A stretch of 58,405 bases of DNA from an uncultured Eubacteriales bacterium (GTDB lineage: Bacteria > Bacillota > Clostridia > Oscillospirales > CAG-272). How positions within the stretch are numbered: the stretch's first letter is position 1; each line of letters starts with the position of its first letter. The stretch spans positions 1 to 58,405 of the forward strand of contig CAKRPQ010000003.1 of the NCBI GenBank assembly GCA_934385225.1, in the 5' to 3' direction. Both the position numbers and the translations under genes were made by a program. Below, piece by piece: positions 26,638 through 44,940 of the stretch. The notes beneath the pieces were generated by a model that saw only the letters and a list, made by a program, of their open reading frames with translations, did not search any database and was not told where the DNA came from.

Positions 26638-27528
26638 TCAATCCGACGGCGTGACGCGCCCCGAAACGGGCTTCTTCACGCTGCCCGCTTTTTTCGCCTT
26701 TTCGCGGTAGTCCGTCGCCGTCATGCCGAAATATTTTTTGAACATCTTCATAAAATGTATCTCGTCGCGGTAGCCTGCCATTGCAGCCGCCTCTTTTATA
26801 CTCAGATTCGTCTCCGAGAGCAGCTTCGCGGCGGTGTTCATTTTGAGATCCGTCAGCTTTTTCATCGGCGACATACCGTATTTTTCGCCGAATATCTTGC
26901 ATAGCGTCGAATGACTTGTGTAAAGTGCCATGCAGAGCGATTCTATCGTAAAATCGGGGTTCGACGAGTTCACTGATATATAGCGCAGAGCCTGCTCGGC
27001 AAGCTCCGAACGACCCGCCGACGTCGTTTCGCCTCCGACAATTTCGCCGACGACGGAGAAAAGCGCCGATTTTGCCTTGTATTCGTTGACGTTGCCGCTT
27101 GCCATCGACGATATTACGGACGTTACAACGTCCTCTATAAATTCGGGACTTCGCGGCGTTATGATCGGGTGTTCAAGGTCGAAGCCCATTTTGAGACCGA
27201 GCTTTGCCGCCTCCGCGCCGCTGAAATAAAACCAGAAATACCGCCATTTTTCGCCGCCCGCCGCGTCCTCCGCGGGATAGTACATTATCTCCTTGTTCGG
27301 CGGCAGAAAGAAGAGCTGCTTTTCGCGCACGTCAAACTCGTTTCCCGCAAGAAAGAGCTTTCCGCTGCCTTTGAGGACGAAATGCAGGGTGTAGTCGGGC
27401 TGAATGCGCAGATATTTTATCGGTTCGATAAATTCAAAGTCGTTGTAGCCGACGTTATGTATGAAAAGATCCTTTTCGCCGCCGTAGGCAAAGACTCTTA
27501 ACATCGACGGATTTCTTCGCGTTTCCAT
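26638..27528 (-). CDS. AraC-family transcriptional regulator, divergent from the mdh-hdr-frd operon
   Basis: The C-terminal HTH reads LCMALYTSHSTLCKIFGEKYGMSPMKKLTDLKMNTAAKLL..IKEAAAMAGYRDEIHFMKMFKKYFGMTATDYR. The start is at METRRNP (GGAGGGAACGCC RBS). Confidence 0.85.
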   Translation of the reverse strand: METRRNPSMLRVFAYGGEKDLFIHNVGYNDFEFIEPIKYLRIQPDYTLHFVLKGSGKLFLAGNEFDVREKQLFFLPPNKEIMYYPAEDAAGGEKWRYFWFYFSGAEAAKLGLKMGFDLEHPIITPRSPEFIEDVVTSVISSMASGNVNEYKAKSALFSVVGEIVGGETTSAGRSELAEQALRYISVNSSNPDFTIESLCMALYTSHSTLCKIFGEKYGMSPMKKLTDLKMNTAAKLLSETNLSIKEAAAMAGYRDEIHFMKMFKKYFGMTATDYREKAKKAGSVKKPVSGRVTPSD

Positions 27529-27805
27529 GGCGTTCCCTCCGTTCTTTAATAATAAGGAAATTATATCATTAAAAGCGCGTCCTGTCAATACGGAACGGGC
27601 GGAAGCGGCACGAAAATCGGTTATATCAAAAACGAAATGCCGAGAGAAAAAATATATATATCCAGATTGTTAAAAAATTGGCGAAAAAACTTTTTTTGCG
27701 ACGTAAAATGTGATATAATAGAATGAATCCAAATGTGCAAAGCCGTCCGCGCGCGAAAAAGCGGGACGGTCGCGATAAAAAACAAACCAAAAGGGAAGGT
27801 GCATT

Positions 27806-28750
27806 ATGAACAAAATATCCATTATCGGCACAGGCAGCGTCGGTTCGACCATCGCCTACACTCTCACAGTCATGGGTCTCGCCTCCGAGATCGTCATGAT
27901 CGACATCAACAACGAAAAGGCTCTGGGCGAGGCACTCGACATCAGACAGGGTACGCCTTTTTGCAGCCCCACAACTATCTACGCGGGCGATTACCGCGAC
28001 GCGGAAAACTCCGACATCGTTATCCTTACGTCGGGAATTGCGAGAAAGCCCGGTCAGTCGAGACTTGAACTCGCACAGACGAACGTAAACATCACCAAGT
28101 CCATTATCCCCGAAATCGAAAAGTACGCGCCGAACGCAACCTACATCATCGTCAGCAACCCCGTCGATATCCTTACATATACGTTCAATAAGCTGTCGGG
28201 CATTCCCGAAAACCGCATTATAGGTTCGGGTACTATCCTTGACACGGCTCGTCTGCGCACGAGACTTTCCGAATACTACAATATCAACCAGAGCAACGTT
28301 CACGCTTACGTTTTCGGCGAACACGGCGATTCTTCGTTCATTCCGTGGTCCATTGCGAACATTTCGAACGTTCCGATCTCCGAGTGCAACCGGCTTATAA
28401 CGACACCCGGTATCGTCAGCCCGAAGCTCGATTTCGAAGAGATCGAACAGTATGTTAAGAAGTCGGGCGGCCGCGTTATCGCAAGAAAGGGCGCAACGTT
28501 CTATGCCGTTTCCGTTTCCGTCTGTCATATATGCAAGTGCGTTCTCAGCGGTATCGACACTACAATGACGGTATCGACTATGATGCACGGCGAGTACGGC
28601 ATTGACGACGTCTGCCTCAGCACGCTCAATATGGTCGGAAATCACGGCCTGCGCGGAAAGGTCAACGTTCCGCTCACGGACGGTGAGATAGCAAAGCTCC
28701 GCGCAAGCGCAGATACGCTTAAAGACGTAATAAACAATCTTGAAATCTGA
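27806..28750 (+). CDS. LDH/MDH-family 2-hydroxyacid dehydrogenase; LDH-type scaffold with Arg at the Gln102 position (predicted malate dehydrogenase)
   Basis: The motifs are IIGTGSVGST, SGIARKPGQSRLEL, GSGTILDTARLR and NVHAYVFGEHGDS. The alignment to B. stearothermophilus LDH was done from memory. Confidence 0.8.
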   Translation: MNKISIIGTGSVGSTIAYTLTVMGLASEIVMIDINNEKALGEALDIRQGTPFCSPTTIYAGDYRDAENSDIVILTSGIARKPGQSRLELAQTNVNITKSIIPEIEKYAPNATYIIVSNPVDILTYTFNKLSGIPENRIIGSGTILDTARLRTRLSEYYNINQSNVHAYVFGEHGDSSFIPWSIANISNVPISECNRLITTPGIVSPKLDFEEIEQYVKKSGGRVIARKGATFYAVSVSVCHICKCVLSGIDTTMTVSTMMHGEYGIDDVCLSTLNMVGNHGLRGKVNVPLTDGEIAKLRASADTLKDVINNLEI

Positions 28751-28761
28751 GAGGCACGAAA

Positions 28762-30138
28762 ATGGAATACCGTATCGAACACGATTCTATGGGCGAGGTC
28801 AAAGTCCCCGCAGATAAACTCTGGGCGGCACAGACCGAAAGAAGTCACGAGAATTTCAGAATAGGCGTCGGTATCGAAACGATGCCGAGAGAAATAACAC
28901 ACGCGTTCGGAATACTTAAAAAAGCAGCCGCAATGGCGAACGCGGAACTCAAACCCGAAAAAATGACCGCCGAAAAGCTCGCCGTTATCGAAAAGGCGTG
29001 CGACGAGGTTATTTCGGGCACTCTTAACGAGCATTTCCCGCTTGTCGTATGGCAGACGGGATCGGGAACGCAGTCGAATATGAACGCGAACGAAGTCATC
29101 GCAAACCGCGCAAACGAGCTTGCGGGCAAAAAACTCTGCCACCCGAACGACGATATAAATATGAGTCAGTCGTCAAACGACACATTCCCGACCGCGATGC
29201 ACATTTCGGCAGTTATCGCGATCGAAGATAAGCTGCTGCCCGCGATAGAACTGCTTATATCGACCTTCAAGCGCCTTGAAGAGGAGAATGAGGGCATAGT
29301 AAAGTCGGGACGCACGCATTTGCAGGACGCAACGCCGATAAAGTTCAGTCAGGAGATTTCGGGCTGGCGTTCGAGCCTTGAACGCGACGCGGAGCTTCTC
29401 CGCCTTGCGGTAAAGCCGCTTCACGAACTTGCTCTCGGCGGAACCGCCGTCGGCACGGGTCTTAACGCGCCGAAAGGCTTCTCGGAACTTGTCGCAAAGA
29501 AGGTAGAACTTCTCACGGGCAAGCCGTTCGTCACCGCGCCGAATAAATTCCATTCTCTTACGTCAAAGGACGAGCTCGTTTTCGCTCACGGCGCGATAAA
29601 GGCGACTGCGTGCGATATGATGAAGATTGCGAACGACGTCCGTTGGCTCGCGTCGGGTCCCCGCGACGGCCTCGGCGAGATACACATTCCCGAAAACGAA
29701 CCCGGCTCGTCGATAATGCCGGGCAAGGTCAACCCGACGCAGTGCGAGGCTGTCACGATGGTTGCCGTTCAGGTCATGGGCAACGACGTCGCGGTCGGTA
29801 TGGCGGCATCGCAGGGCAACTTTGAGCTTAACGTGTTTATGCCCGTCGCCGCTTATAACTTCCTGCAATCCGCACGCCTGCTCGCGGAGGCGATAGTATC
29901 GTTCAACAATAACTGCGCCGTCGGAATTACGGCAAATAAGGATAAAATGTACCACAACCTCCACAATTCTCTTATGCTCGTAACGGCTCTCAACCCCTAC
30001 ATCGGCTACGAGAACGCCGCAAAGACGGCGAAAAAGGCGTTTAAGGACGGAATTTCGCTGAAAGAGGCTTGTGTAGAACTCGGATTCCTTACCGCGGAAA
30101 AATTCGACGAGGTATTCCACCCCGAACAGATGGTCTGA
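28762..30138 (+). CDS. fumC: class II fumarate hydratase
   Basis: The signature is GSSIMPGKVNPTQCEA, the length is 458 aa, and the N-terminus MEYRIEHDSMGEVKVPADKLWAAQTERS is typical. Confidence 0.95.
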   Translation: MEYRIEHDSMGEVKVPADKLWAAQTERSHENFRIGVGIETMPREITHAFGILKKAAAMANAELKPEKMTAEKLAVIEKACDEVISGTLNEHFPLVVWQTGSGTQSNMNANEVIANRANELAGKKLCHPNDDINMSQSSNDTFPTAMHISAVIAIEDKLLPAIELLISTFKRLEEENEGIVKSGRTHLQDATPIKFSQEISGWRSSLERDAELLRLAVKPLHELALGGTAVGTGLNAPKGFSELVAKKVELLTGKPFVTAPNKFHSLTSKDELVFAHGAIKATACDMMKIANDVRWLASGPRDGLGEIHIPENEPGSSIMPGKVNPTQCEAVTMVAVQVMGNDVAVGMAASQGNFELNVFMPVAAYNFLQSARLLAEAIVSFNNNCAVGITANKDKMYHNLHNSLMLVTALNPYIGYENAAKTAKKAFKDGISLKEACVELGFLTAEKFDEVFHPEQMV

Positions 30139-30156
30139 TCACCGCTTGGAGGAAAA

Positions 30157-30945
30157 ATGATGAAAGTTAGTTATTTTCCCGGCTGTACGCTTCGCACAAA
30201 GGCAAAAGAGCTTGACGCCTACGCCCGCAAATGCGCCGAGATACTCGGAGTAGAGCTTTGCGAGATAAAGGACTGGCAGTGCTGCGGCGGAGTTTACGTC
30301 ACCGCGAAAAACGAAATTGCGACAAAGCTGTCAAGCGTCCGTGCTCTCGTCGCGGCAAGGGACGAGGGTATGCCGCTCGTCACCGTTTGCTCCGCCTGCC
30401 ATAACGTCATAAAGCAGACGAATAACGCGATGCGCACTGACAGGGAGTTCGCCGACAAGGTGAACCGCTATATGGCGCAGGAGAAGACCCCGACCTCCTA
30501 CGAGGGCGAGACGGAGGTGCTTCACTACCTCGAACTTCTGCGCGACGTCGTCGGCTTCGACAAGATAAAGGAAAAGGTCGTAAATCCCCTTACGGGAAAG
30601 AAGATAGCGCCTTACTACGGCTGCCTTCTGCTCCGTCCCGGCAAGGTCATGGCGTTTGACGACGTCGAAAACCCGACGATAATGGAAAATTTCATTCGCG
30701 CTCTCGGTGCAGAGCCTGTTATATACCCGATGCGGAACGAATGCTGCGGCGGTTACGTCACTCTCGAAGACGCGGAGCTTTCAAAGAAGAAGAGCCTCGC
30801 CGTCGGCGAGAATGCGGAGGCGCACGGAGCGACCCTTATGGTCACAGCCTGTCCGCTTTGCAAGTACAATCTCACAAAGAACGGCAGCCCCGTTCCGGTC
30901 GTATATTTCACGGAGCTTCTCGCAGAGGCTCTCGGCGTAAAATAA
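30157..30945 (+). CDS. hdrB: HdrB-like CCG-domain protein (heterodisulfide reductase subunit B family)
   Basis: There are two CCG-type Cys patterns: FPGC...WQCCGG...CSAC and YYGC...NECCGG...CPLC. Confidence 0.85.
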   Translation: MMKVSYFPGCTLRTKAKELDAYARKCAEILGVELCEIKDWQCCGGVYVTAKNEIATKLSSVRALVAARDEGMPLVTVCSACHNVIKQTNNAMRTDREFADKVNRYMAQEKTPTSYEGETEVLHYLELLRDVVGFDKIKEKVVNPLTGKKIAPYYGCLLLRPGKVMAFDDVENPTIMENFIRALGAEPVIYPMRNECCGGYVTLEDAELSKKKSLAVGENAEAHGATLMVTACPLCKYNLTKNGSPVPVVYFTELLAEALGVK

Positions 30946-30975
30946 TGATGGGAGAATGGAGAAGAGAAACGCAAA

Positions 30976-31362
30976 ATGCAAAACGAAGAACTTAAAAAAC
31001 AAATCATACGCGAGAGCGGTGTGAACCCGCTCAAATGTATGCGCTGCGGAAAATGCTCGGCAACCTGCCCGTCATACGACGAAATGGAGTATCACCCGCA
31101 CCAGTTTGTGTATATGGTCGAGATCGGCGACATCGAAACTCTGATGAAGTCGGATTCGATTTATAAATGCCTTTCGTGCTTTGCCTGTATCGACAGGTGT
31201 CCGAGAGGCGTAGAACCCGCAAAGATAGTAGAGGCTGTCCGCCTTGAAGTCATAAGACAAAAGGGCGCAAATCACCTCACGTCAAACGACATTCCCGCGC
31301 TTGCGGACGACGATATGCCCCAGCAGGCACTCGTCAGCGCAATGCGCAAGTATTCAAAGTAA
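30976..31362 (+). CDS. hdrC: HdrC-like 2x[4Fe-4S] ferredoxin subunit
   Basis: The motifs are CMRCGKCSATCP and CLSCFACIDRCP. It is 128 aa and sits between hdrB and hdrA. Confidence 0.8.
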   Translation: MQNEELKKQIIRESGVNPLKCMRCGKCSATCPSYDEMEYHPHQFVYMVEIGDIETLMKSDSIYKCLSCFACIDRCPRGVEPAKIVEAVRLEVIRQKGANHLTSNDIPALADDDMPQQALVSAMRKYSK

Positions 31363-31377
31363 GGAGGAGAAAAAACA

Positions 31378-33372
31378 ATGCAGAGAATAGGCGTATTTGT
31401 CTGCCACTGCGGAACGAACATCGCTGGAACAGTCGATGTAAAGGCTGTCGCAGAGGCTATAAAGAACGAACCGGGCGTGGTTTTCTCCACCGACTACCAG
31501 TATATGTGCTCCCAGGCGGGACAGAACATGATAAAGGACGCCGTAAAGGAGAATAACTTAACGGGAATAGTTGTCTGTTCATGCTCGCCGCGTATGCACG
31601 AGGCGACGTTCAGAAAAACGGCAGCCGCCGCCGGTCTTAACCCGTATATGGTTGAAATCGCGAATATCCGCGAGCAGTGCTCGTGGGTACATAAGTCGAT
31701 GCCAGATGGCACCGAAAAGGCGATAATCCTTGCCAAAGCCGCCGTCGCAAAGGTGAACCTCAACGCTCCGCTCACACCCGGCGAAAGCCCCGTTACAAAG
31801 CGTGCGCTCGTCATCGGCGGAGGTATCGCGGGCATTCAGACCGCGCTCGATATTGCCGACGCGGGCTTCCCTGTCGATATCGTCGAAACGAAACCGACAA
31901 TCGGCGGTAAAATGGCACAGCTTGACAAGACGTTCCCGACGCTCGACTGCGCGGCTTGTATCCTCACGCCGAAGATGGTCGACGTTGCACAGAACGAAAA
32001 GATAAGAATCTTCTCCTACTCCGAGGTTACGGACGTAAAGGGCTTTGTCGGCAACTTTGACGTCACGATAAAGAGAAAGGCGAGATATGTAAAAGAGGAC
32101 ATCTGCACGGGCTGCGGTCTTTGCACCGAGAAATGCCCGCAGAAGAAAGTCCCGAACGAGTTCAACCTCGGTATGGACAACCGTCACGCGATCTATATTC
32201 CGTTCGCGCAGGCTGTCCCGAAGGTAGCGACGATTGACCCGAACTACTGTACGATGCTTAAAACGGGCAAGTGCGGCGTATGTTCCAAGGTCTGCGGCGC
32301 GGGCGCGATAGATTATAAGGCGAAGGACGAATTTGTTGAGGAAAAGTACGGCGCTATCGTCGTCGCGACGGGCTTCAACCCGATTTCGATGGAAAAATTC
32401 GACGAATTTGCGTATTCGCAGTCGAAGGACGTCGTAACGTCGCTCGAACTTGAAAGACTTATGAACGCGGCAGGACCTACGGGCGGCACGCTTCTCCGTC
32501 CCTCCGACGGAACTCACCCGCATACGATAGTTTTCGTTCAGTGCGTAGGCTCGCGCTGCGCCTCCTGCGCCGAAAAGGGCAAGGAATACTGCTCGAAGAT
32601 ATGCTGTATGTACACCGCAAAGCACGCGATGCTCATACGCGACAAATATCCCGACACCGACGTTTATGTATTCTATATCGACGTGCGTACACCCGGTAAG
32701 AACTTCGACGAATTTTACCGCCGCGCGGTTGAGGAGTACGGCGTTCACTACATAAAGGGTATGGTCGGCAAGGTTTCGCCCGAGGGCGGCAAGCTGAAAG
32801 TTCAGGGCTCGGATCTTATCTACGGCAAGCAGGTGCATATCGACGCCGATATGGTCGTTCTCGCAGCCGCGATAGAACCCGATAAGTCCGCGAGACACCT
32901 CGCGACTATGCTCACCGCCAGCATGGATACGAACGACTTCTTCACCGAGGCTCACCCGAAGCTCCGTCCCGTAGAAAGCCCGACAGCGGGCGTTTACCTT
33001 TCGGGAACGTGCCAGGGACCGAAGGATATTCCCGAAACCGTCGCACAGGCGGGTGCCGCCGCGTCGAAGGTCATCGGACTTCTCTGCCACGATAAGCTCA
33101 CGGGCAACCCGTGCGTCGCTCATTCGGACGAGATGATGTGCAACGGCTGTTCGACCTGCGAAAAGGTATGTCCCTACGGCGCGATCACATATATCGACAA
33201 GGAATTCAGAATGCCCGACAGAACGACAAAGATACGCCGCGTGGCTTCCGTCAACGAGGCGGTCTGCCAGGGGTGCGGTGCTTGTACCGTCGCTTGTATG
33301 TCGGGGGCAATGGACCTTAAAGGCTTCATGAACAAACAAATCATGGCGGAGGTGGACGCAATATGCAAGTAA
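31378..33372 (+). CDS. hdrA: HdrA-like FAD/FeS flavoprotein (putative bifurcating subunit)
   Basis: The N-terminus is MQRIGVFVCHCGTNIAG and the FAD fold is ALVIGGGIAGIQTALDIADAG. There are several CxxCxxCxxxC clusters (CTGCGLCTEKCP, CGVCSKVC, CNGCSTCEKVCP, CQGCGACTVAC). Confidence 0.9.
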   Translation: MQRIGVFVCHCGTNIAGTVDVKAVAEAIKNEPGVVFSTDYQYMCSQAGQNMIKDAVKENNLTGIVVCSCSPRMHEATFRKTAAAAGLNPYMVEIANIREQCSWVHKSMPDGTEKAIILAKAAVAKVNLNAPLTPGESPVTKRALVIGGGIAGIQTALDIADAGFPVDIVETKPTIGGKMAQLDKTFPTLDCAACILTPKMVDVAQNEKIRIFSYSEVTDVKGFVGNFDVTIKRKARYVKEDICTGCGLCTEKCPQKKVPNEFNLGMDNRHAIYIPFAQAVPKVATIDPNYCTMLKTGKCGVCSKVCGAGAIDYKAKDEFVEEKYGAIVVATGFNPISMEKFDEFAYSQSKDVVTSLELERLMNAAGPTGGTLLRPSDGTHPHTIVFVQCVGSRCASCAEKGKEYCSKICCMYTAKHAMLIRDKYPDTDVYVFYIDVRTPGKNFDEFYRRAVEEYGVHYIKGMVGKVSPEGGKLKVQGSDLIYGKQVHIDADMVVLAAAIEPDKSARHLATMLTASMDTNDFFTEAHPKLRPVESPTAGVYLSGTCQGPKDIPETVAQAGAAASKVIGLLCHDKLTGNPCVAHSDEMMCNGCSTCEKVCPYGAITYIDKEFRMPDRTTKIRRVASVNEAVCQGCGACTVACMSGAMDLKGFMNKQIMAEVDAICK

Positions 33373-33800
33373 ACGAAGAATACAAGCCTCTGATAGTTGC
33401 ATTCTGCTGTAACTGGTGTTCCTATGCGGGCGCAGACCTTGCGGGCAACAACAGACTGGCTTATCCCGAAAACATTAAGATAATCCGCGTGCCCTGCTCG
33501 TGCCGTGTGAACCCGATGTTCATTCTCCGCGCGTTCCAGCGCGGTGCGGACGGCGTTATTCTCTGCGGTTGCCACCCCGGCGACTGCCATTACACGTCGG
33601 GCAACTACTACACAAGACGCCGTATGGCACTTCTCTTCTCCATGCTCGATTATCTCGGCATAGAGAGGGAACGCACGCGCGTCGAATGGGTAAGTGCAGC
33701 CGAAGGCGCAAAGTTCGCCGCCACAATGAACGATTTTGAAAAGAAAGTCGCCGCACTCGGCGAGAACAAGAGATTGGAGGACCTGAGATGCAAGAAATAA
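33363..33800 (+). CDS. mvhD: MvhD/FlxD-like iron-sulfur protein
   Basis: The motif PLIVAFCCNWCSYAGADLAG...IRVPCSCRVNP...DGVILCGCHPGDCHY is present. It overlaps the hdrA stop. Confidence 0.85.
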   Translation: MQVNEEYKPLIVAFCCNWCSYAGADLAGNNRLAYPENIKIIRVPCSCRVNPMFILRAFQRGADGVILCGCHPGDCHYTSGNYYTRRRMALLFSMLDYLGIERERTRVEWVSAAEGAKFAATMNDFEKKVAALGENKRLEDLRCKK

Positions 33801-34780
33801 CAAGAGACGCTCTTCTCGAAAGAGCGAAAAAACTTCTCGCAGACGGTACTGTCACGCGCGTTCTCGGCTGGAAAAAGGGCGAATTCGACTACGATATTAC
33901 CCCCGGACTTTTCCGCGGCGCAGAGGAGCTTGATTCGGAGCTTGTCTGGAACGGACTCTGCGGCGCGAACCTTTCAAAGTACCTTGTAAAAGAGACGGGA
34001 AAAGAGGACGGCAAGGTTCTTGCGTTCCTTAAACCCTGCGATACATACAGCTTCAACCAGCTTCTGACGGAACATCGCTTCGACCGCGAAAAGGTCTATG
34101 TAATAGGCGTTCCGTGCGACGGAATGATAGACGTAAACACGCTTAAAGCGCACGCCGAGAATATCGTCCGCGTGACGACGGATGGCGAAAAGGCAGATGT
34201 CGAAACTCTCTACGACGGAGTAAAGACGTTTGAGCGCACGGAGCTTCTCCCCGACAGATGCGTAAGATGCAAGTCGAAAAAGCACGTCGCATATGACGAA
34301 ATTCTCGGCGAGGACGGCGAGGTCGCCGATTCGAGCCGTTTCGACGAGGTTGCGGAGATTGAAAAGATGACTCCCGACGAGCGTTTCGCGTTCTGGCAGA
34401 ACGAGCTTTCGAGATGCATACGCTGCAACGCCTGTCGTAACGTCTGCCCCGCCTGCACCTGCGAAAAGTGCGTTTTCGATAACCCAGCGTCGGGCGTCGA
34501 AAACAAGGCGGCGTCAAACTCGTTTGAGGACAGTATGTTCCATATCATAAGAGCATTCCACGTTGCGGGCAGATGCACGGACTGCGGAGAGTGCTCGCGC
34601 GTATGTCCCGAACATATTCCGCTTCACCTGCTCAACCGCAAGTTCATAAAGGATATAGATTCCTTCTACGGCGATTATCAGGCGGGAGCCGAGGTCGGCT
34701 CGCGCGCGCCCGTAGTCAACTACACGACAGACGATATCGAACCCTCCGAGGCTGTAAAGAGAGGTGAGCATGATGCGTAA
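33788..34780 (+). CDS. iron-sulfur protein, FlxC-like
   Basis: The motifs are CIRCNACRNVCPACTC and CTDCGECSRVCP, with additional Cys (KPCDTYS, VPCDG). It overlaps both neighbouring genes. Confidence 0.65.
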   Translation: MQEITRDALLERAKKLLADGTVTRVLGWKKGEFDYDITPGLFRGAEELDSELVWNGLCGANLSKYLVKETGKEDGKVLAFLKPCDTYSFNQLLTEHRFDREKVYVIGVPCDGMIDVNTLKAHAENIVRVTTDGEKADVETLYDGVKTFERTELLPDRCVRCKSKKHVAYDEILGEDGEVADSSRFDEVAEIEKMTPDERFAFWQNELSRCIRCNACRNVCPACTCEKCVFDNPASGVENKAASNSFEDSMFHIIRAFHVAGRCTDCGECSRVCPEHIPLHLLNRKFIKDIDSFYGDYQAGAEVGSRAPVVNYTTDDIEPSEAVKRGEHDA

Positions 34781-35801
34781 AACAGAACTCTCAAAGCTGA
34801 ACGAATTTTTCGGCGCGATTTCAAAAGCATATAGGCTCTACATTCCGACGGACGTAAAGTCAGGCGCGGAATATAAAGAGTGGAAGGACGGTATGACCCT
34901 CTCGGAGAAGCTGAATACCGTCAGAAGCGCAAAGGATTTCTTCTTCCCGCAGACGGAGAACCTTATGGATTTCAAAACCGGGGGAAAGAAGATAGAAATT
35001 ATCGACACGCGCTCGGAATGTGAGGATTTCGTCATTTTCGGCGTCCGCGCGTGCGACGTGCGTAGCTTTGACGTGCTTGACAGGGTGTTCCTTGCCGAGC
35101 CTGCCGATTCCTACTACAAAAACCGCCGCGAGCACGGCGTTATCATCTCCGTTGCCTGCACAAAGCCCGCCGAGACCTGCTTCTGTCACACGTTTGATAT
35201 CGACGCGAGCGACCCCGAGGGCGATGTTGTCTGCCACAAGACGGACGATGCGCTCTATATGGAGGCGAAAACAGAAAAGGGCGAAAAACTGCTCTCGCTT
35301 GTCGCTTCTCTTACCGCCGAATGCGGTGACGAAAAGGTCTGCGAGCAGAAAAAAGAGATAAAAGAGAGACTTGCAAGGCTGCCTCTCGCTTCCCTTTCGG
35401 CGTCCTCGTTCGGAAAAGGCAAAACGAAGGAATTTTTTGACGCTCCCGAATGGAAGGAGCTTTCCGAGGCTTGCCTCGGCTGCGGAACCTGTACGTTCGT
35501 CTGCCCGACCTGCCAGTGCTACGATATAAAGGACTTTAATACGGGTCACGGCGTGAAGCGTTTCCGCTGCTGGGATTCCTGTATGTACTCCGATTTCACG
35601 AAGATGTCGGCGGGACAGCCGCGTCTCACACAGCTTGAACGCTTCCGCCAGCGCTTTATGCACAAGCTCGTCTATTATCCGACGAACAACGACGGCCTTT
35701 TCTCCTGCGTCGGCTGCGGCAGATGTATGTCGCGTTGCCCGATACAGATGAATATTGTCAAGGTCATGAAAAAACTTTCGGAGGGACGTAAAGATGATTG
35801 A
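34770..35801 (+). CDS. iron-sulfur protein, AsrA/HydB/FlxB-like
   Basis: The motifs are CLGCGTCTFVCPTCQCYD and CVGCGRCMSRCP, with GVRACDVRS upstream. The ATG at 34770 has an AGAGAGG RBS (the ORF-track GTG is at 34764). Confidence 0.7.
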   Translation: MMRKTELSKLNEFFGAISKAYRLYIPTDVKSGAEYKEWKDGMTLSEKLNTVRSAKDFFFPQTENLMDFKTGGKKIEIIDTRSECEDFVIFGVRACDVRSFDVLDRVFLAEPADSYYKNRREHGVIISVACTKPAETCFCHTFDIDASDPEGDVVCHKTDDALYMEAKTEKGEKLLSLVASLTAECGDEKVCEQKKEIKERLARLPLASLSASSFGKGKTKEFFDAPEWKELSEACLGCGTCTFVCPTCQCYDIKDFNTGHGVKRFRCWDSCMYSDFTKMSAGQPRLTQLERFRQRFMHKLVYYPTNNDGLFSCVGCGRCMSRCPIQMNIVKVMKKLSEGRKDD

Positions 35802-36627
35802 TATGAAAGAACCGCTTATGCCGAAGATCGGCGTTGTGACCGATATCCGCATAGATACGCCCGACGTAAAGACCTTCCGCGTTGTTACGCCCGACGGCAA
35901 AAAGGCGTTCGACCATATGCCGGGTCAGTGCGCAATGCTTTCGGTTCCCGGCGTCGGCGAGGCAATGTTTTCGATAACGTCCTCACCGACAAATACCGAA
36001 TATATGGAATTTTCCATTAAAAAGTGCGGCTGCGTCACCGAATGGCTTCACTCAATGGAGGTCGGTCAGGAGATAACGATAAGAGGCCCATACGGCAGAC
36101 CGTTCCCCGTTGACACCGAGTTTGCGGGACACGATATGCTCTTTATCGCGGGCGGTATCGGACTTGCTCCGCTTCGCTCCGTTATAAACTACTGCCGCCA
36201 CTACCGCGACAGATACGGCAAAATCGACATCGTTTACGGCTCGCGCAGTATGCAGGACCTTGTCGATTACAAGGAGATAATCGAGGAATGGGAGAAGGAC
36301 GCGGGCGTTACCGTGCACCTCACCATCGACCGCGAACAGCCCGAATGGACGGGTCACGTCGGCTTCGTTCCGAACTATGTAAAGGAACTTGCTTTCACAC
36401 CCGATAAGGTCGCTATCCTCTGCGGTCCTCCGATAATGATCAAGTTCACGCTTGCGGGACTTGAAGAACTCGGCTTCGACAAGACGCAGGTATATACGAC
36501 GCTCGAACTTCGTATGAAGTGCGGCATCGGAAAATGCGGAAGATGCAACGTCGGCGCAAAGTACGTCTGCAAGGACGGTCCCGTATTCCGTCTTGACGAG
36601 CTTGAAGAGCTTCCCGACGAATACTGA
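35794..36627 (+). CDS. FAD/NAD(P)H-binding oxidoreductase with C-terminal [2Fe-2S] motif, AsrB/HydG/FlxA-like
   Basis: It has an FNR-like fold (FSITSSP, LFIAGGIGLAPLRS) and the C-terminal motif CGIGKCGRCNVG. Confidence 0.8.
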   Translation: MIDMKEPLMPKIGVVTDIRIDTPDVKTFRVVTPDGKKAFDHMPGQCAMLSVPGVGEAMFSITSSPTNTEYMEFSIKKCGCVTEWLHSMEVGQEITIRGPYGRPFPVDTEFAGHDMLFIAGGIGLAPLRSVINYCRHYRDRYGKIDIVYGSRSMQDLVDYKEIIEEWEKDAGVTVHLTIDREQPEWTGHVGFVPNYVKELAFTPDKVAILCGPPIMIKFTLAGLEELGFDKTQVYTTLELRMKCGIGKCGRCNVGAKYVCKDGPVFRLDELEELPDEY

Positions 36628-36652
36628 TACGGGAAAAGGAGTGTAAGTAGCT

Positions 36653-37327
36653 ATGGAAAATATGGTTAATGTATATTTTTTCGGAAAGAAATACAGCGTT
36701 CCCGATAATTTGACGATAATGTGCGCGATGGAATACGCGGGCTATCAGCTCGTGCGCGGCTGCGGCTGCCGAGGCGGTTTCTGCGGTGCCTGCGCGACGA
36801 TATACCGCATAAAGGGCGACAGAGAGCTTCGCACATGCCTTGCCTGCCAGACAAAGGTTGAGAACGATATGTATGTCGCGACGCTTCCTTTCTTCCCGCT
36901 TGTAAAACAGGTTTACGATATCGAAAAGGTGAAGCCAACGGAGCAGATAATGATGCAGCTTTACCCCGAAATCTACGCCTGCATAGGCTGTAACGCCTGT
37001 ACAAAGAGCTGTACGCAGGGACTTAACGTCATGCAGTACATCGCGTATGCGCAGAGAGGCGAGTTTGAGAAGTGTGCGGAGGAGTCGTTCGACTGCGTAA
37101 TGTGCGGAGTCTGCTCTTCGCGTTGCCCCGCGGGCATATCTCACCCTCAGGTCGCTATGCTTGCGAGACGTCTCAACGGCAAATATCTTGCGCCGAAGTC
37201 CGAACACCTTGAAAACAGGGTGAAGGAAATAAAGGACGGCACGTTTGCCGAACTTATTGAAAACCTTATGGGCAAACCGATCGACGAGATCAAAGAGCTT
37301 TACAACAACAGAGAGATCGAAAAGTAA
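36653..37327 (+). CDS. frdB: fumarate reductase/succinate dehydrogenase iron-sulfur subunit-like
   Basis: The N-terminal [2Fe-2S] pattern is CRGGFCGAC...C. It is followed by CIGCNACTKSC and the complete motif CVMCGVCSSRCP. Confidence 0.75.
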   Translation: MENMVNVYFFGKKYSVPDNLTIMCAMEYAGYQLVRGCGCRGGFCGACATIYRIKGDRELRTCLACQTKVENDMYVATLPFFPLVKQVYDIEKVKPTEQIMMQLYPEIYACIGCNACTKSCTQGLNVMQYIAYAQRGEFEKCAEESFDCVMCGVCSSRCPAGISHPQVAMLARRLNGKYLAPKSEHLENRVKEIKDGTFAELIENLMGKPIDEIKELYNNREIEK

Positions 37328-37339
37328 GGGGGCGACGAA

Positions 37340-38935
37340 ATGTATCCGGAAGAACTAAAAAAATCGCTTGAAGCGGTTGAGAGCGCAAGAGAGGCGAATA
37401 TCGCATTCGAACCCCGTCGTATGACGGCGGACGAAAAGGACGCGCTCCTTGCTTCATACCACCCCGACTACAAAAGGGACGAATTTAAGGCACTCAGAAT
37501 AGGTCCGAACAAGGGCGAGGAGGTGCCGCACGAGCTTTGCGATATGCTCGAAGCGCACAGCCGCATTTCCGCAAAGGACGTTGACCTTGACAAGGTAACA
37601 TACGACGTCGATGTTCTTATAATCGGCGGCGGCGGAGCGGGCGCTTCCGCGGCGATCGAAGCCGATAACGCGGGCGCAAAGACGATGATAGTCACGAAGC
37701 TTCGTATAGGCGACGCGAACACGATGATGGCTGAGGGCGGTATTCAGGCGGCCGACAAACCGAACGATTCGCCCGCTATCCACTTTGTCGACGCTTTCGG
37801 CGGCGGACACTACGCGGCAAAGCGGGACCTTCTCGCGAAGCTCGTCTGCGACGCTCCCGAAGCAATAAAGTGGCTGAACGATCTCGGCGTGGAGTTTGAC
37901 AAAGCTCCCGACGGCACGATGATTACGACGCACGGCGGCGGAACTTCACGCAAGCGTATGCACGCCGCAAAGGACTATTCGGGCGCGGAAATTATGAGAA
38001 CTCTGCGCGACGAAGTGCTGAACCGCGGTATTCCCGTAGTTGACTTCACATCCGCAGTCGAACTCATTCTTGACGAGAACGGCAAGTGCGCGGGCGCAGT
38101 CCTTATGAATATGGAAACAAAGGAACTTATGGTTGCGCGCGCAAAAACCGTCATTATCGCGACGGGCGGTGCGGGAAGAATGCACTATCAGGGCTTCCCG
38201 ACATCGAACCACTACGGCGCAACTGCTGACGGACTTGTTCTCGGCTACCGTGTCGGCGCAAAGCTCCTCTATGCGGACACTTTGCAGTATCACCCGACGG
38301 GCGCGGCTTATCCAACGCAGATATTCGGCTCGCTCGTTACCGAAAAGGTGCGTTCGCTCGGCGCAAAGCTCGTGAACCGCGACGGTAAAGTCTTTATCCA
38401 CCCGCTCGAAACGCGCGACGTCTGCGCGGCGGGCATTATCCGTGAATGTTCGGATAACGGAGAGGGCGTAGATACCGGAAACGGCAAGGCTGTATGGCTT
38501 GACACGCCGATGATAGAGAAGATCGGCGGAGAGGGAACTATCGAAAAGAGAATACCTGCCATGCTCCGTATGTTCGGTACATACGGCATCGACATAAGAA
38601 AAGAACCGATACTTGTCTACCCGACGCTCCACTACCAGAACGGCGGTCTTGATATAAACGTAAACGGAATGACGACGAACGTCGAAAATCTGTTTGTCGC
38701 AGGCGAGGCAGTCGGCGGTATTCACGGTCGTAACAGACTTATGGGTAACTCTCTGCTTGATATTATCGTGTTCGGCAGAAGCGCGGGACGTAACGCGGCT
38801 GAAACGTCGAAAAATACGAACGTCGGCAAGCTCACGCTTGACCATATAGCGCGTTTCGATAAGGAAAGAGAAGAAGCGGGCATAGTCACAGACGCCGTTT
38901 CTCCGAAGCTCCTTCCCGATTACAGAAGAAAATAA
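37340..38935 (+). CDS. frdA: fumarate reductase/succinate dehydrogenase flavoprotein-like subunit, non-covalent-FAD type
   Basis: The motifs are DVLIIGGGGAGASAA, QYHPTG, TEKVRSLGAKLVN, PTLHYQNGG and GEAVGGIHGRNRLMGNSLLDIIVFGR. Asn127 (37718-37720) stands where the FAD-linking His sits in E. coli FrdA (RSHTVAAEGG). Confidence 0.8.
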   Translation: MYPEELKKSLEAVESAREANIAFEPRRMTADEKDALLASYHPDYKRDEFKALRIGPNKGEEVPHELCDMLEAHSRISAKDVDLDKVTYDVDVLIIGGGGAGASAAIEADNAGAKTMIVTKLRIGDANTMMAEGGIQAADKPNDSPAIHFVDAFGGGHYAAKRDLLAKLVCDAPEAIKWLNDLGVEFDKAPDGTMITTHGGGTSRKRMHAAKDYSGAEIMRTLRDEVLNRGIPVVDFTSAVELILDENGKCAGAVLMNMETKELMVARAKTVIIATGGAGRMHYQGFPTSNHYGATADGLVLGYRVGAKLLYADTLQYHPTGAAYPTQIFGSLVTEKVRSLGAKLVNRDGKVFIHPLETRDVCAAGIIRECSDNGEGVDTGNGKAVWLDTPMIEKIGGEGTIEKRIPAMLRMFGTYGIDIRKEPILVYPTLHYQNGGLDINVNGMTTNVENLFVAGEAVGGIHGRNRLMGNSLLDIIVFGRSAGRNAAETSKNTNVGKLTLDHIARFDKEREEAGIVTDAVSPKLLPDYRRK

Positions 38936-38960
38936 AATAAAAAAGAAAGCGTAAAACAAA

Positions 38961-39287
38961 ATGACAGTTTTTCAAATAGTTGACCTTTTTGAGGCACTTA
39001 CAATTTTCTGCTTTGGTCTTTCGTGGCCGATCTCGATCCGTAAATCGTGGGTTTCCCGCACCGCAAAGGGAAAAAGCCTCTTTTTCGAGGTGTTTCTCCT
39101 TATCGGCTACGCATTCGGAATTGCCAGAAAGATAATTTATATCGCCTCGCCCGACCTCACGAGCGGCGGCTTCATCTTCTACCTCAGTTTCTTCTTCTAC
39201 ATACTGAACTTTATCGAAATTTCGATAGATGCGGCTCTCTATTTCAGAAACAAGAGACTCGATGAGATAGCTGACGCGAAGAAATAA
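38961..39287 (+). CDS. small 3-TM membrane protein (PQ-loop/SemiSWEET-like), last gene of the operon
   Basis: It is 108 aa with three hydrophobic segments and the motif WPISIRKSWVSRTAKGKSLFF. It contains no histidine. The RBS is weak. Confidence 0.5.
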   Translation: MTVFQIVDLFEALTIFCFGLSWPISIRKSWVSRTAKGKSLFFEVFLLIGYAFGIARKIIYIASPDLTSGGFIFYLSFFFYILNFIEISIDAALYFRNKRLDEIADAKK

Positions 39288-39303: not shown

Positions 39304-39342
39304 AACGGTAAGCACATATACCCCCGTGCTTGCCGTTTCTTT
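39304..39342 (+). terminator. rho-independent terminator (first of two)
   Basis: A 12-bp stem aacggtaagcac / gtgcttgccgtt is followed by a T-rich tract. Confidence 0.75.
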
Positions 39343-39356: not shown

Positions 39357-39387
39357 AGGACGGAGGGTCTTCCAGCCGTCCTTTTTG
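39357..39387. terminator. second hairpin terminator between convergent genes
   Basis: The stem ggacgg / ccgtcc is followed by TTTTT on the plus strand, with an A/T-rich tract on the other side. Confidence 0.55.
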
Positions 39388-39403: not shown

Positions 39404-40153
39404 TTATTCGCTTTCCGCGGTGCTTTCCGCCGCAAAGTCGAATATCTGCTTTCCCGTGCCGCGAACCTGCCACATATAGTAGATGAATGCCGTAGCGGAG
39501 ACGTCGTCTTTCAGTTCCTCCTCCGACTTCGGCGTCGGATAACCGTTTGATATGTCAAAGTATTCATAGGTGCTGCGCCCGTCCTCGCCCGCGTCAAAAC
39601 CGTAGATGTAAGTGTTTGCATAGTTTTCTTTCGGCTGCGAAAGCGTTTCTCCCTTGCCGAAAGCTCTGCCACCGAGAATGAACGGGTCGTGGTACGAGAC
39701 GGTGTTTCTGTAAGCGCGTTCGATTTTAACCTCGCTGCCGAGCGTAAGATCTGTTATCTTGTATTTCGGCTCGTAAAATTCGATATAAGTTTTCGCGAGC
39801 GACACTTCGCGCGGACGCGGCGTGGAGCTTGTCACCGAAAACGTTCTGTATATTCCGTCCTCCGTGACGACGATTATGCAGTTTATAAAGCGCATATCGT
39901 CCGCGGTGTAGTATCTCTTTATCTCCTCGTAATCGTCGTCATCACCGAAAATGCGCTCAAAGGTCATATCCGAAAGATCGCAGAGCGATTCAAGCGACAC
40001 TTTTTTAACGTCAAGCGCCTCGTCGCTGTCAAGGACGGTGAAATCGGGTGCGTCGGCTTTTTCGCCGTTTTCGGCATTGCCACAGGACGGCAGAACAAAA
40101 AGCAGAGCGAGCGTAAACGCGAATGTGACCGCAAACGTTAAAACTTTTTTCAT
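39404..40153 (-). CDS. hypothetical lipoprotein
   Basis: The signal peptide MKKVLTFAVTFAFTLALLFVLPSC carries a lipobox. No catalytic motifs were recognised. Confidence 0.65.
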   Translation of the reverse strand: MKKVLTFAVTFAFTLALLFVLPSCGNAENGEKADAPDFTVLDSDEALDVKKVSLESLCDLSDMTFERIFGDDDDYEEIKRYYTADDMRFINCIIVVTEDGIYRTFSVTSSTPRPREVSLAKTYIEFYEPKYKITDLTLGSEVKIERAYRNTVSYHDPFILGGRAFGKGETLSQPKENYANTYIYGFDAGEDGRSTYEYFDISNGYPTPKSEEELKDDVSATAFIYYMWQVRGTGKQIFDFAAESTAESE

Positions 40154-40331: not shown

Positions 40332-41159
40332 CTATTTTCTCACCGCCGACGGCGTTTTTCCGACGTATTTTCTGAACGTTTTTGAAAAGTAGGACATATT
40401 TTCAAAGCCGCACCGCGCGGCGATCTCGCCGACGGGATCGTCCGTGCCGACAAGAAGTCTGCGTGCATATTCGCAACGGAGCATATTGACGTATTCCGTC
40501 ACCGTGTAGCCCGTGTAGCGCTTGAAGCGGCGCAGAAAATGATATTTGCTCGAACCTGCCGCGGCGGCTATTTCGTCCGCGGTCATTTCGCTTGTGTAGT
40601 TTGAGTTTATGTAGACTAATCCGCTTTTTACCGTGTCCGAGCTTTTCTTTGCCGCCTTTTTCGGCAGAGGCTCGGAAAATTCGCACGCGAGAAGAGCCAG
40701 AACGCGCATAACGGCGGAACGCACCGACACGACGCGCGAGTTTTCGTCCGTGTTTTCGTCGAATTCCTTTGCCGCTTTCTCTACAAGAGAAAACAGCTCG
40801 GCGTTTTCGATGTGCGTCATAAAGTGGAGATGCTCTATATCAAGCCCGTTTTCGATGCAGAATGTGCGTCCGACGATGAGACAGTGGTATTCGACGCTTC
40901 CGTCGCTCGCAATCGTGTGAACGGCGTTCGAATCTATGACGACGGTGTCGCCTTTTTTCATCGTGTACCTGTTCGTGTCGCAGAGGATACTGCCCATGCC
41001 GCTCGTCACCGAGAGAATTTCAAGACTGTCGTGCCAGTTGCCGCAGTTGTATGGTTTGTGTTCGACCTTGTCGTAGTGATATATGAACGGCAGCCGCTCG
41101 TCGGACCACCTGTGAACTTCAAAGACGCTTCCCGATTGATTTCTGTTCTCTTTCGGCAT
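40332..41159 (-). CDS. AraC-family transcriptional regulator (cupin + HTH)
   Basis: The C-terminal HTH reads IAAAAGSSKYHFLRRFKRYTGYTVTEYVNMLRCEYARRLL...IAARCGFENMSYFSKTFRKYVGKTPSAVR. It is divergent from the 41320 operon. Confidence 0.85.
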   Translation of the reverse strand: MPKENRNQSGSVFEVHRWSDERLPFIYHYDKVEHKPYNCGNWHDSLEILSVTSGMGSILCDTNRYTMKKGDTVVIDSNAVHTIASDGSVEYHCLIVGRTFCIENGLDIEHLHFMTHIENAELFSLVEKAAKEFDENTDENSRVVSVRSAVMRVLALLACEFSEPLPKKAAKKSSDTVKSGLVYINSNYTSEMTADEIAAAAGSSKYHFLRRFKRYTGYTVTEYVNMLRCEYARRLLVGTDDPVGEIAARCGFENMSYFSKTFRKYVGKTPSAVRK

Positions 41160-41319
41160 AATGCACCTCGCAAAAAGAGCAATATTGTGTTAGAAATCCG
41201 CAATATAGACCCTTGATTTTTCCTCGTAAACTGTTAAAATATAGTTAAAGAGGCTGTATATCAATTATACAGTAAAAAAACGGTTTTTGCAATATTTTTT
41301 CAAAAAAAGGAGAGTGCAA

Positions 41320-42168
41320 ATGTACGATTTCAGGATAGGAGCGATGGTAGAATCGTTCAGGACGGATCCGTTCGAGGCTATAAAAAAAGCGGCTTCTCTC
41401 GGCGCGGGCGGTCTGCAAATGTATTGCACGAGCGGCGAGAACGCGCCGGAAAATATGACGGAGGAGCGCATAAAGAAGTTCCGCGGCGTGCTGAATGATA
41501 ACGGTCTTGTTTTCAGCGCGATATGCGGCGATCTCGGCAGAGGCTTCGGAAACAAGGAGCTTAATCCCGCGCTTATCGAAAGGTCGAAGCGCATAGTCGA
41601 TCTTGCCCTGCGGCTCGGCACGAATATCGTAACGACGCACATCGGCGTAGTTCCGAGTGACGAGAACCACGAACGCTATAAGGTAATGCAGGAGGCTTGC
41701 CATGCTCTCGCCGAATACGCCGACAGCGTAGGGGCGCACTTTGCCGTCGAGACGGGACCCGAACCGTCCGCGGTGCTTAAAAAGTTCCTCGATTCGCTCG
41801 GTTCAAAGGGCGTTGCGGTCAACCTTGACCCCGCGAACCTCGTTATGGTCGTCGGCGACGACCCCGTCGCGGCGGTGCATAACCTTAAAGACTATATCGT
41901 CCATACGCACGCAAAGGACGGCATAATGCTCGAAAAGACGAACCCCGAATACATATACGGCATAACGCCGAAGCCCGAAGAAATCGGAGACATAACCTTT
42001 TTCCGCGAAGTTCCGCTCGGTAAAGGCTCGGTGAATTTCCCCGCATACCTTAAAGCACTTGACGAAATAGGCTATCACGGCTTCCTCACGATAGAGCGCG
42101 AGGTCGGCGACACTCCCGAAAAGGACATCTCCGAGGCGATAAACTTCTTAAAAGGACTTAACGGATAA
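41320..42168 (+). CDS. sugar phosphate isomerase/epimerase-like TIM-barrel protein (xylose isomerase-like fold)
   Basis: The fold markers are [23 protein letters not shown] and HTHAKDG. The start is at MYDFRIG (AGGAGAG RBS). Confidence 0.75.
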
Positions 42169-42171
42169 AAA

Positions 42172-42960: not shown

Positions 42961-42979
42961 AAAGAAAGAGGACAGAAAG

Positions 42980-44041: not shown

Positions 44042-44042
44042 T

Positions 44043-44912: not shown

Positions 44913-44940
44913 AAATTATTAACAAGGAGAATTAAAAAAA

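Follow-up and report, generated by a model that had tools for sequence, protein, structure and literature searches.

A twelve-gene operon of an uncultured Clostridia bacterium as a candidate electron-bifurcating NAD(P)H:fumarate/ferredoxin system

Twelve co-oriented genes at positions 27806-39287 of the DNA studied here, a window of 58,405 nucleotides (nt) on contig CAKRPQ010000003.1 from an uncultured Eubacteriales bacterium (assembly GCA_934385225.1), bring together genes for the formation of fumarate, Hdr and Flx electron-transfer modules and a pair of genes resembling fumarate reductase. This arrangement raises the question of why an Hdr/Flx machinery should be joined to fumarate, the coupling that a first-pass annotation of the window had proposed in place of a heterodisulfide. 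Our analysis favours, with moderate confidence, the interpretation that a single operon here serves the reductive branch from oxaloacetate through malate and fumarate to succinate, operating in the cytoplasm and independently of quinones, and that a bifurcating NAD(P)H:fumarate/ferredoxin operon is its best explanation. The modules, the gene order, related loci with swapped input modules and a natural fusion in the thiol:fumarate reductase subunit TfrB all agree with the first-pass proposal, whereas the idea is not new, the FrdBA pair is non-canonical, and the ferredoxin branch, the NADH specificity and direct electron transfer from HdrB to FrdB are inferences. The idea has already been put forward by two independent groups for the same kind of cluster and is unproven; the window operon is a new example of this proposed, unproven kind of Flx-Hdr-linked fumarate reductase.

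The 11 enzyme genes were assigned to families by Pfam and NCBIfam profile searches, with NCBIfam scores compared to the cut-offs of the models. Gene 5 (31378-33372, + strand, as for all twelve genes; 664 aa) encodes a full-length HdrA, the candidate bifurcating flavoprotein, which aligns with HdrA of the solved, bifurcating Mvh-Hdr complex of methanogens (5ODC_A) over residues 3-661 (690 bits, ~55-60% identity) with all cysteine cluster motifs in register and scores 789.6 bits against NCBIfam HdrA2. The HdrB-like gene 3 (30157-30945; 262 aa) contains two copies of the Pfam CCG domain, and both of its complete CCG cysteine motifs align with methanogen HdrB structures (~116 bits); its best NCBIfam matches are MFR SdhE (154.6 bits) and HdrB (139.2 bits), both under cut-off. 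SdhE is a CCG protein that partners SdhB. Gene 4 (30976-31362; 128 aa) specifies an HdrC-like 2x[4Fe-4S] protein (Pfam Fer4_8 and Fer4_17; HdrC NCBIfam models at E 1e-15 to 1e-17, under cut-offs), and gene 6 (33363-33800; 145 aa) an MvhD/FlxD-like [2Fe-2S] protein (Pfam FlpD, 186.5 bits, E 2e-55). These matches bear out the earlier labels of HdrB with two CCG patterns, HdrC, HdrA and MvhD-like protein.

By family, the three genes that follow have the composition of Flx. Gene 7 (33788-34780; 330 aa) encodes a FlxC-like iron-sulfur (FeS) protein with a C-terminal 4Fe-4S dicluster domain (Pfam Fer4_8 and Fer4_9, residues 206-277), and its cluster region has weak similarity to gene 8 (34764-35801; 345 aa). 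The latter is a FlxB-like, AsrA- or sulfhydrogenase-beta-like FeS protein that matches Pfam Fer4_22 (102 bits) and the NCBIfam models ShyB, HydB and AsrA (E 1e-42 to 1e-54, under cut-offs). Gene 9 (35794-36627; 277 aa), a FlxA-like protein that binds flavin adenine dinucleotide (FAD) and NAD(P)H and has a C-terminal [2Fe-2S] site, has the FNR-type Pfam domains FAD_binding_6, NAD_binding_1 and DHODB_Fe-S_bind, matches NCBIfam HydG and AsrB-like models and is the presumed NAD(P)H entry point. Pfam and NCBIfam thus concur with the first-pass description of two AsrA/HydB-like FeS proteins and an AsrB/HydG-like FAD/NAD(P) protein, and the motifs cited in that annotation (GSSIMPGKVNP, CMRCGKCSATCP, CLSCFACIDRCP and CGIGKCGRCNVG) are all present. 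Its family assignments were upheld by the profile searches throughout, with three corrections concerning gene 1 and the FrdA-like and FrdB-like subunits.

The FrdB-like FeS subunit encoded by gene 10 (36653-37327; 224 aa) consists of Pfam Fer2_4 and a Fer4 dicluster; its 2Fe-2S motif is of the plant type, and both of its CxxCxxCxxxC(P) motifs are complete. As its second ferredoxin motif is a full CVMCGVCSSRCP with all four cysteines, the protein probably has no 3Fe-4S cluster. The likeness to SdhB and TfrB is weak and distant: the dhsB model gives 25.7 bits (cut-off 88), SdhB structures are matched at E ~1e-4 and the TfrB model is matched weakly. The TfrB model spans both gene 10 (model positions 19-153, 32.7 bits) and gene 3 (positions 377-471, 35.8 bits), each far from the cut-off of 385, and by this alignment TfrB is a natural fusion of gene-10-like and gene-3-like proteins. 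This fusion, together with SdhE as the best match of gene 3, supports the proposed contact between HdrB and FrdB. A metagenomic protein of 727 aa (P0123) fuses a FrdB-like part (residues 1-221, 38% identity to gene 10) to a FrdA-like part (residues 215-727, 55% identity to gene 11), which indicates that the FrdB-like and FrdA-like proteins form one enzyme.

Gene 11 (37340-38935; 531 aa) encodes a non-canonical FrdA-like flavoprotein. Pfam detects FAD_binding_2 alone (residues 91-472), with no Succ_DH_flav_C domain, and all Sdh/Frd NCBIfam scores are under cut-off; the best NCBIfam match, TfrA (331.5 bits, cut-off 718), stops at model position 413 of 546. From this, the protein lacks the C-terminal helical domain. 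The position of the histidine that binds FAD covalently (flavinylation) is occupied by Asn127, which is invariant in 50 aligned homologues, as are the dicarboxylate-binding and proton-donor residues H291, H318 (in an HPT motif), R338 and R359-D360. A non-covalent FAD suits a reductase-only enzyme. An N-terminal extension (residues 1-88), without a Pfam match at E <= 10, is conserved subfamily-wide with H41, P42, G55 and G59 invariant. The AF2 model is confident throughout (pLDDT 92.8, pTM 0.92) and resembles the fold of E. coli FrdA most closely (1KF6_A, TM 0.72 over ~450 columns); a search of solved structures returned no close homologue. The earlier assignment as a FrdA-like subunit is thus sustained by catalytic residues and fold; the protein departs from FrdA in lacking the C-terminal domain and the flavinylation histidine and in having 88 extra N-terminal residues, and the pair is, on these sequence features, a distinct non-canonical FrdBA subfamily. 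Aspartate oxidase (NadB), the alternative identity raised in the first-pass annotation, was rejected: TIGR00551 scores 269 bits, under its cut-off of 452.75, and the protein is always paired with, or in P0123 fused to, an FeS subunit.

At least 590 relatives were confirmed, and synteny was assessed in the best 80 loci of these, of which 52 include the full upstream flank. Genes 3-11, from hdrB to the frdA-like gene, are colinear in all 52 of these loci from gut and rumen Clostridia, fumarase is present in 50 and the malate dehydrogenase-like gene comes first in the operon in 47, while the shorter loci among the best 80 contain every gene expected within their span. The census of hdrBCA-flxDCBA-frdBA co-localization suggested by the first-pass annotation therefore found the arrangement in every testable locus. 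A complete HdrA (664 aa, six cluster motifs) and its MvhD partner are kept across relatives at 75-94% identity. The close homologues, at 78-89% identity, belong to Clostridia of the gut and rumen that are mostly represented by metagenome-assembled genomes (MAGs); one relative, Yeguia hominis NSJ-40, has been cultured. The G+C content of Y. hominis (63.6%) differs from that of the window (~51-53%), indicating that the window derives from another genus; no metabolite data for Y. hominis were found in the literature.

The genes at the front of the operon would connect it to fumarate. Gene 2 (28762-30138; 458 aa) is a class II fumarate hydratase, as claimed earlier: it exceeds the equivalog cut-off of TIGR00979 (699.7 versus 664.75 bits), matches Pfam Lyase_1 and FumaraseC_C, and its GSSIMPGKVNP fits the GSSxMPxKxN signature. 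Gene 1 (27806-28750; 314 aa) belongs by Pfam (Ldh_1_N and Ldh_1_C) to the lactate/malate dehydrogenase (LDH/MDH) family of NAD dehydrogenases, as annotated, and its closest solved structures are annotated LDHs. The MDH label is less secure since NCBIfam favours LDH, although an arginine in GIARKPGQSR occupies the specificity position of LDH Gln102. An arginine at this position, the Q102R switch, selects oxaloacetate. On the basis of this residue and of the operon-first placement in 47 of the 52 relatives, we read gene 1 with moderate confidence as an LDH-like MDH. A side observation concerns PDB entry 1Y6J from Clostridium thermocellum, deposited as 'L-lactate dehydrogenase', which also has an arginine at the Gln102 position (GANRKPGETR) and may be an LDH-like MDH.

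Beyond Clostridia, the FrdA-like protein has its nearest 50%-identity cluster in Archaea (MAGs of Bathyarchaeia, Asgard and Halobacteria; ~55% identity), and WOR-3, Chloroflexota, Thermodesulfobacteriota, Armatimonadota and other Bacillota contribute additional members. We examined nine of these wider contexts (L081-L089), rescoring them with the window proteins. An Asgard MAG (L082, GCA_052584985.1) has the order hdrA-mvhD-mvhG-mvhA-hycI-hdrC-hdrB-frdB-frdA, with 51-58% identity to genes 5, 6, 10 and 11. A Bacillota MAG (L086) combines hdrA-hdrC-hdrB, a 1474-aa fusion of GltD/NfnB-like and HdrA-like parts, mvhD, an FeS protein and frdB-frdA. The input module beside HdrA, MvhD and FrdBA thus varies between Flx in the window, a [NiFe] hydrogenase in the Asgard locus and a GltD-like protein in L086. 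Swapping of input modules is part of the known modular logic of Hdr complexes. The persistence of the pairing in both Bacteria and Archaea, with the input module exchanged, argues that Hdr and FrdBA work together. Judged by gene context, FrdBA of this type is a portable module with HdrCB as its commonest partner. In a Bathyarchaeia context (L081), malic enzyme and class I fumarase genes lie directly upstream of frdBA, with a CCG protein 7 kb off. The Asgard hdrA is itself uncalled: a full-length gene (L082:2617-4539, 51% identity to gene 5) is interrupted by an in-frame TGA at 4141-4143, not a cysteine position in other HdrA proteins, that could be a sequencing error, a pseudogene mutation or a case of stop-codon recoding.

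The mechanism that we envisage begins with gene 9, which would oxidize NAD(P)H, with NADH the likelier donor than NADPH. Electrons would then reach the FAD of HdrA by way of two FeS proteins (genes 8 and 7) and the MvhD-like protein (gene 6), and each electron pair would be split at HdrA. The downhill electron would travel via HdrC and HdrB to the clusters of gene 10 and onwards to the non-covalent FAD of gene 11 for reduction of fumarate, and the uphill electron would leave through the ferredoxin-like domains of HdrA to ferredoxin (Fd). Genes 1 and 2 would supply the fumarate, giving an expected reaction of 2 NAD(P)H + fumarate + Fd(ox) -> 2 NAD(P)+ + succinate + Fd(red, 2 e-). Textbook potentials are -320 mV for NAD, +33 mV for fumarate and ~-420 mV for ferredoxin, and with these values we calculated ~-49 kJ per fumarate for the reaction of 2 NADH with fumarate and oxidized ferredoxin, in line with the first-pass claim that the gap between NADH and fumarate can drive ferredoxin reduction. 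The reverse direction, with succinate oxidation and ferredoxin confurcating to NAD+, was considered and rejected (~+49 kJ/mol calculated), the non-covalent FAD also favouring a reductase. It is about an even call whether the proteins form a single soluble supercomplex in which HdrA bifurcates electrons from NAD(P)H to ferredoxin and fumarate, and in which the non-cubane clusters of HdrB serve as a pure relay, free of thiol chemistry, towards FrdB.

Comparison with described systems places the window operon close to the 'succinate operon' of Pseudoclostridium (Hungateiclostridium) thermosuccinogenes, in which a fumarate hydratase, a seven-gene Flx-Hdr set, a two-gene fumarate reductase and a hypothetical protein, regarded as a potential succinic acid transporter, are found together (doi 10.20944/preprints201912.0288.v1; PMC7282089). 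Its authors proposed that succinate formation is coupled to ferredoxin reduction (Koendjbiharie & van Kranenburg 2019; Koendjbiharie et al. 2020; PMC7282089). That operon shows high expression and is co-regulated approximately four-fold by CO2, and its reductase pair is the only described fumarate reductase of this succinate-producing organism; an older observation that H2 abolishes succinate formation fits the bifurcation proposal (PMC7282089). The two operons share the block order of fumarase, seven Flx-Hdr genes, two fumarate reductase genes and a small hypothetical protein, the proposed mechanism from NADH to fumarate and ferredoxin, and nearly identical gene sizes (P. thermosuccinogenes versus window: FrdA-like 1603/1596 bp, FrdB-like 676/675 bp, HdrB-like 784/789 bp and fumC 1366/1377 bp), the likeness to the P. 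thermosuccinogenes genes (CDQ83_RS03315-03365) being one of architecture and gene size only. The window differs in the additional LDH-like MDH gene at the front and in its host, which is placed among mesophilic gut Clostridia near Yeguia, whereas P. thermosuccinogenes is a thermophile. A second group of papers proposed an Hdr-Flx set coupled to a 'thiol:fumarate reductase' in a reductive tricarboxylic acid cycle cluster of Endoriftia and Thioflavicoccus, and considered a DsrC-like carrier (Rubin-Blum et al. 2019; Mitchell et al. 2024).

Other known systems resemble parts of the operon. FlxABCD-HdrABC of Desulfovibrio vulgaris (Ramos et al. 2015) has the same seven protein types, matched by family description only. 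Its genes are ordered flxABCD-hdrABC in contrast to hdrBCA-flxDCBA in the window, and the proposed high-potential acceptor is the DsrC disulfide instead of FrdBA and fumarate. Methanogen MvhADG-HdrABC (5ODC) shares a full-length HdrA at ~55-60% identity and recognizable HdrB, HdrC and MvhD, and it is this Mvh-Hdr set that is joined to the same FrdBA pair in the Asgard locus. The window, in contrast, has no hydrogenase, its HdrB is shorter (262 versus ~290-300 aa) and the substrate of this HdrB would be an FeS partner and not CoM-S-S-CoB. As for TfrAB of Methanothermobacter (Heim et al. 1998), gene 11 finds its best NCBIfam match in TfrA, and TfrB has a gene-10-like N-terminal half and a gene-3-like C-terminal half; scores are nevertheless far under the equivalog cut-offs (331 versus 718), the FeS and CCG parts are separate genes in the window, and gene 11 lacks the C-terminal domain of TfrA and has an N-terminal extension. 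FrdABCDE of Hydrogenobacter thermophilus is, like the proposed enzyme, cytoplasmic, multi-subunit, NADH-linked and quinone-free (Miura et al. 2008). It reportedly has no HdrA, MvhD or Flx, is not described as bifurcating and has a long canonical FrdA. Its extra subunits are reportedly GltD-like and HdrB/C-like, a make-up that would bring it near to locus L086. Finally, E. coli FrdABCD (1KF6) provides the best structural match of gene 11, with the catalytic histidine and arginine residues kept, but the window differs from it and from complex II in having no covalent-FAD histidine, C-terminal domain, 3Fe-4S-type motif or FrdC/D anchors.

A number of observations weigh against a bifurcating operon. 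NCBIfam scores place gene 1 over the cut-off for LDH (354 bits, cut-off 339) and just under that for MDH (275 bits, cut-off 283). The FrdBA subfamily also occurs without HdrA, so that this module needs no bifurcation to function: hdrC-hdrB lie a few genes upstream of frdBA in L088, a cytochrome b (Ni_hydr_CYTB)-FeS fusion adjoins FrdBA in Chloroflexota (L084) and Armatimonadota (L089), an ETF-alpha-like protein, a small FeS protein and an acyl-CoA dehydrogenase adjoin it in WOR-3 (L083), and L085 and L087 have FrdBA with no obvious partner. The neighbours in L083, L084 and L089 suggest other electron donors or substrates for the module. Gene 3 keeps a complete disulfide-reductase-type site, with which a thiol/disulfide intermediate would be compatible. 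A full-text literature search retrieved no purification, assay or structure of an enzyme with such a composition, in agreement with the first-pass statement that no biochemically characterized complex of this kind was known, and a 2026 survey still describes Hdr-linked fumarate reduction as 'suggested'.

These points feed into several rival explanations. The operon may specify a soluble NAD(P)H:fumarate oxidoreductase that does not bifurcate, in which Hdr and Flx are mere wiring and all electrons go to fumarate without reduction of ferredoxin. A soluble, multi-subunit NADH-dependent fumarate reductase does exist, as the five-subunit enzyme of H. thermophilus (Miura et al. 2008), and FrdBA also occurs with HdrCB only (L088) or without any Hdr. 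Nevertheless, a complete HdrA with six cluster motifs and an MvhD partner kept at 75-94% identity would be costly as a simple wire, HdrA and MvhD also accompany FrdBA in L082 and L086, and a span of ~350 mV between NADH and fumarate would be wasted; we regard this explanation as rather unlikely. Alternatively, two enzymes could be joined by a diffusible or protein thiol, with Flx-Hdr reducing a disulfide and a Tfr-like FrdBA plus CCG protein reoxidizing the thiol with fumarate. Disulfide reduction by Flx-Hdr would resemble the DsrC proposal in Desulfovibrio, both CCG motifs of HdrB are complete, gene 11 matches TfrA best among the NCBIfam models, parts resembling genes 10 and 3 are both present in TfrB, and a DsrC-like carrier is considered in the Endoriftia papers. 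However, the operon has one CCG protein that would have to serve both thiol reduction and thiol oxidation, and neither the operon nor the conserved part of the best 80 related loci contains a DsrC/TusE-like or thiol-biosynthesis gene. To our knowledge, Clostridia do not make coenzymes M or B. This explanation is distinctly unlikely in our assessment.

The FrdBA-like pair could instead act on another substrate, such as aspartate, another enoate or a tricarboxylate-derived compound, with the link to fumarase being incidental. This would accommodate the NCBIfam matches of gene 11, which are all under cut-off and score nearly alike for NadB and Sdh/Frd models, and the presence of the pair among PrpF, PrpD, aconitase and isocitrate dehydrogenase-like genes in L085 and L088. 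It is very improbable given a class II fumarase inside the operon in 50 of 52 relatives, the position of frdBA immediately downstream of class I fumarase and malic enzyme genes in Bathyarchaeia, an FeS partner subunit that is foreign to NadB, a fold and residues that match FrdA best, and the succinate production of P. thermosuccinogenes with this operon pair as its only described fumarate reductase (PMC7282089). Least probable of all, to the point of being hardly credible, is a quinol-linked enzyme of the complex II kind with gene 12 as its minimal membrane anchor. The approximately three transmembrane helices read from the sequence of gene 12 would be similar to a single FrdC/D or SdhC/D, but most relatives have a transporter in place of this gene, the protein has no haem histidine and no family match, and FrdB has a second four-cysteine motif where quinone-linked enzymes have a 3Fe-4S motif. 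We retain the bifurcating NAD(P)H:fumarate/ferredoxin operon as the best explanation.

The small membrane protein that, as noted in the first-pass annotation, closes the operon is encoded by gene 12 (38961-39287; 108 aa), a hydrophobic protein with approximately three predicted transmembrane helices, no histidine and no Pfam (up to E = 10) or NCBIfam match. A likeness to SemiSWEET/PQ-loop proteins, read by eye from the sequence, is not claimed. It is the only hydrophobic protein adjoining frdAB, and no membrane anchor subunit was found there. Gene 12 is present at the operon end in ~25 related loci while a hydrophobic protein of ~420 aa is found there in ~45, and the two look mutually exclusive. 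In Y. hominis (L012:11628-12890) the replacing protein is a two-domain permease of the AAE family (PF06826, Asp-Al_Ex x2). Both the aspartate:alanine exchanger AspT and SucE, which exports succinate in Corynebacterium, belong to this family, so that an AAE transporter on the 3' side of frdA fits with succinate as the end product. As most relatives carry the transporter instead, the enzyme does not depend on gene 12 as an anchor; this gene encodes a candidate succinate export or accessory protein and not a conserved part of the enzyme, and succinate is probably exported by gene 12 or, in relatives, by the AAE transporter.

The layout of the region is compatible with a single transcription unit. 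All twelve + strand open reading frames lie where they had first been placed, with spacers from gene 1 to gene 12 of 11, 18, 30, 15, -10, -13, -17, -8, 25, 12 and 25 nt. The overlap of 17 nt between genes 7 and 8 applies to a GTG start at 34764; gene 8 may really start at ATG 34770 or 34773, which give overlaps of 11 or 8 nt and bring the spacing into agreement with the gaps of 11-30 nt and overlaps of 8-13 nt reported earlier. Shine-Dalgarno-like purine-rich stretches precede 11 of the 12 genes, that of gene 12 being weak. The extended -10 element TGaTATAAT, a likely operon promoter by direct reading, was recovered exactly as annotated (TGATATAAT, 27711-27719, +), with a weak -35 in that a T-run precedes TGATATAAT; a consensus promoter scan gives a 9/12 site only (27696-27724). 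Two hairpins with T-runs lie 3' of gene 12. The first (39306-39337) has A and T runs on both flanks and is bidirectional, being listed on the - strand by the scan, and the second (39359-39384) is followed by TTTTTG; both are common to the operon and a convergent gene ending at 39404. Internal terminator-like sites on the + strand (30700, 32978, 33275 and 39076) are weak and no more frequent than in shuffled sequence, consistent with the earlier report of hairpins after the last gene only. An Rfam scan of the operon and leader gave nothing relevant. The leader (~80 nt from the -10 to the start codon) contains a GC-rich hairpin at 27742-27770 (+), CCGUCCGCG...CGCGGGACGG, with a fold energy of -23.5 kcal/mol, a z-score of only -1.85 and no Rfam match.

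Flanking genes offer some candidates for regulation. An AraC-family regulator (AraC_binding and HTH_18) at 26638-27588 (-) is divergent from the operon and could regulate it; its promoter (27588-27560, -) is a perfect TTGACA-17-TATAAT with a TG extension (12/12). No match to this regulator occurs in the ~450 nt of upstream flank of related loci, a flank too short for conservation to be judged. A Rex operator TTGTTAAAAAATTGGCGA at 27667-27684 (+), overlapping the -35 region, was discounted, as it has three mismatches and chance gives ~2.7 such sites per window. In Y. hominis, a Rex-type gene (Put_DNA-bind_N and CoA_binding; L012:12925-13548) lies directly 3' of the operon transporter gene. Downstream of the window operon, the convergent open reading frame at 39404-40153 (-; 249 aa) has no Pfam family at E <= 1e-5, and a second AraC-type regulator is encoded at 40332-41159 (-). 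A + strand cluster within 40332-46732 comprises two xylose-isomerase-like TIM barrel proteins, an Exo_endo_phos protein and a GFO/IDH/MocA oxidoreductase, and this cluster seems to serve the catabolism of a sugar or inositol and to have no connection with the operon.

Here we have characterized an operon for which the idea of a bifurcating fumarate reductase has been speculative since 2019. To this idea we add the very broad distribution of the system among Clostridia of the gut and rumen, the additional MDH gene, alternative exporter genes at the operon end, the definition of a distinct FrdBA subfamily and the swapping of input modules across Bacteria and Archaea. FrdBA with HdrCB(A), fed by Flx, Mvh hydrogenase or GltD-like proteins, provides cultivable or clonable targets for a first biochemical test, namely Y. 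hominis NSJ-40 and P. thermosuccinogenes. If the supercomplex exists, it would be the first Hdr shown to drive the reduction of a C=C bond, and would constitute a quinone-free, energy-conserving form of fumarate 'respiration', common among Clostridia of the gut and rumen and matched in Asgard archaea by counterparts fed by hydrogenase. Should the mechanism hold, these abundant, mostly uncultured Clostridia would gain reduced ferredoxin for each fumarate reduced, and this extra ferredoxin could be spent on ion pumping by Rnf or on making H2. Such a gain would account for the benefit that fermenters without quinones draw from the succinate branch, and would change the redox and ATP balances in models of succinate and hydrogen metabolism in the gut.

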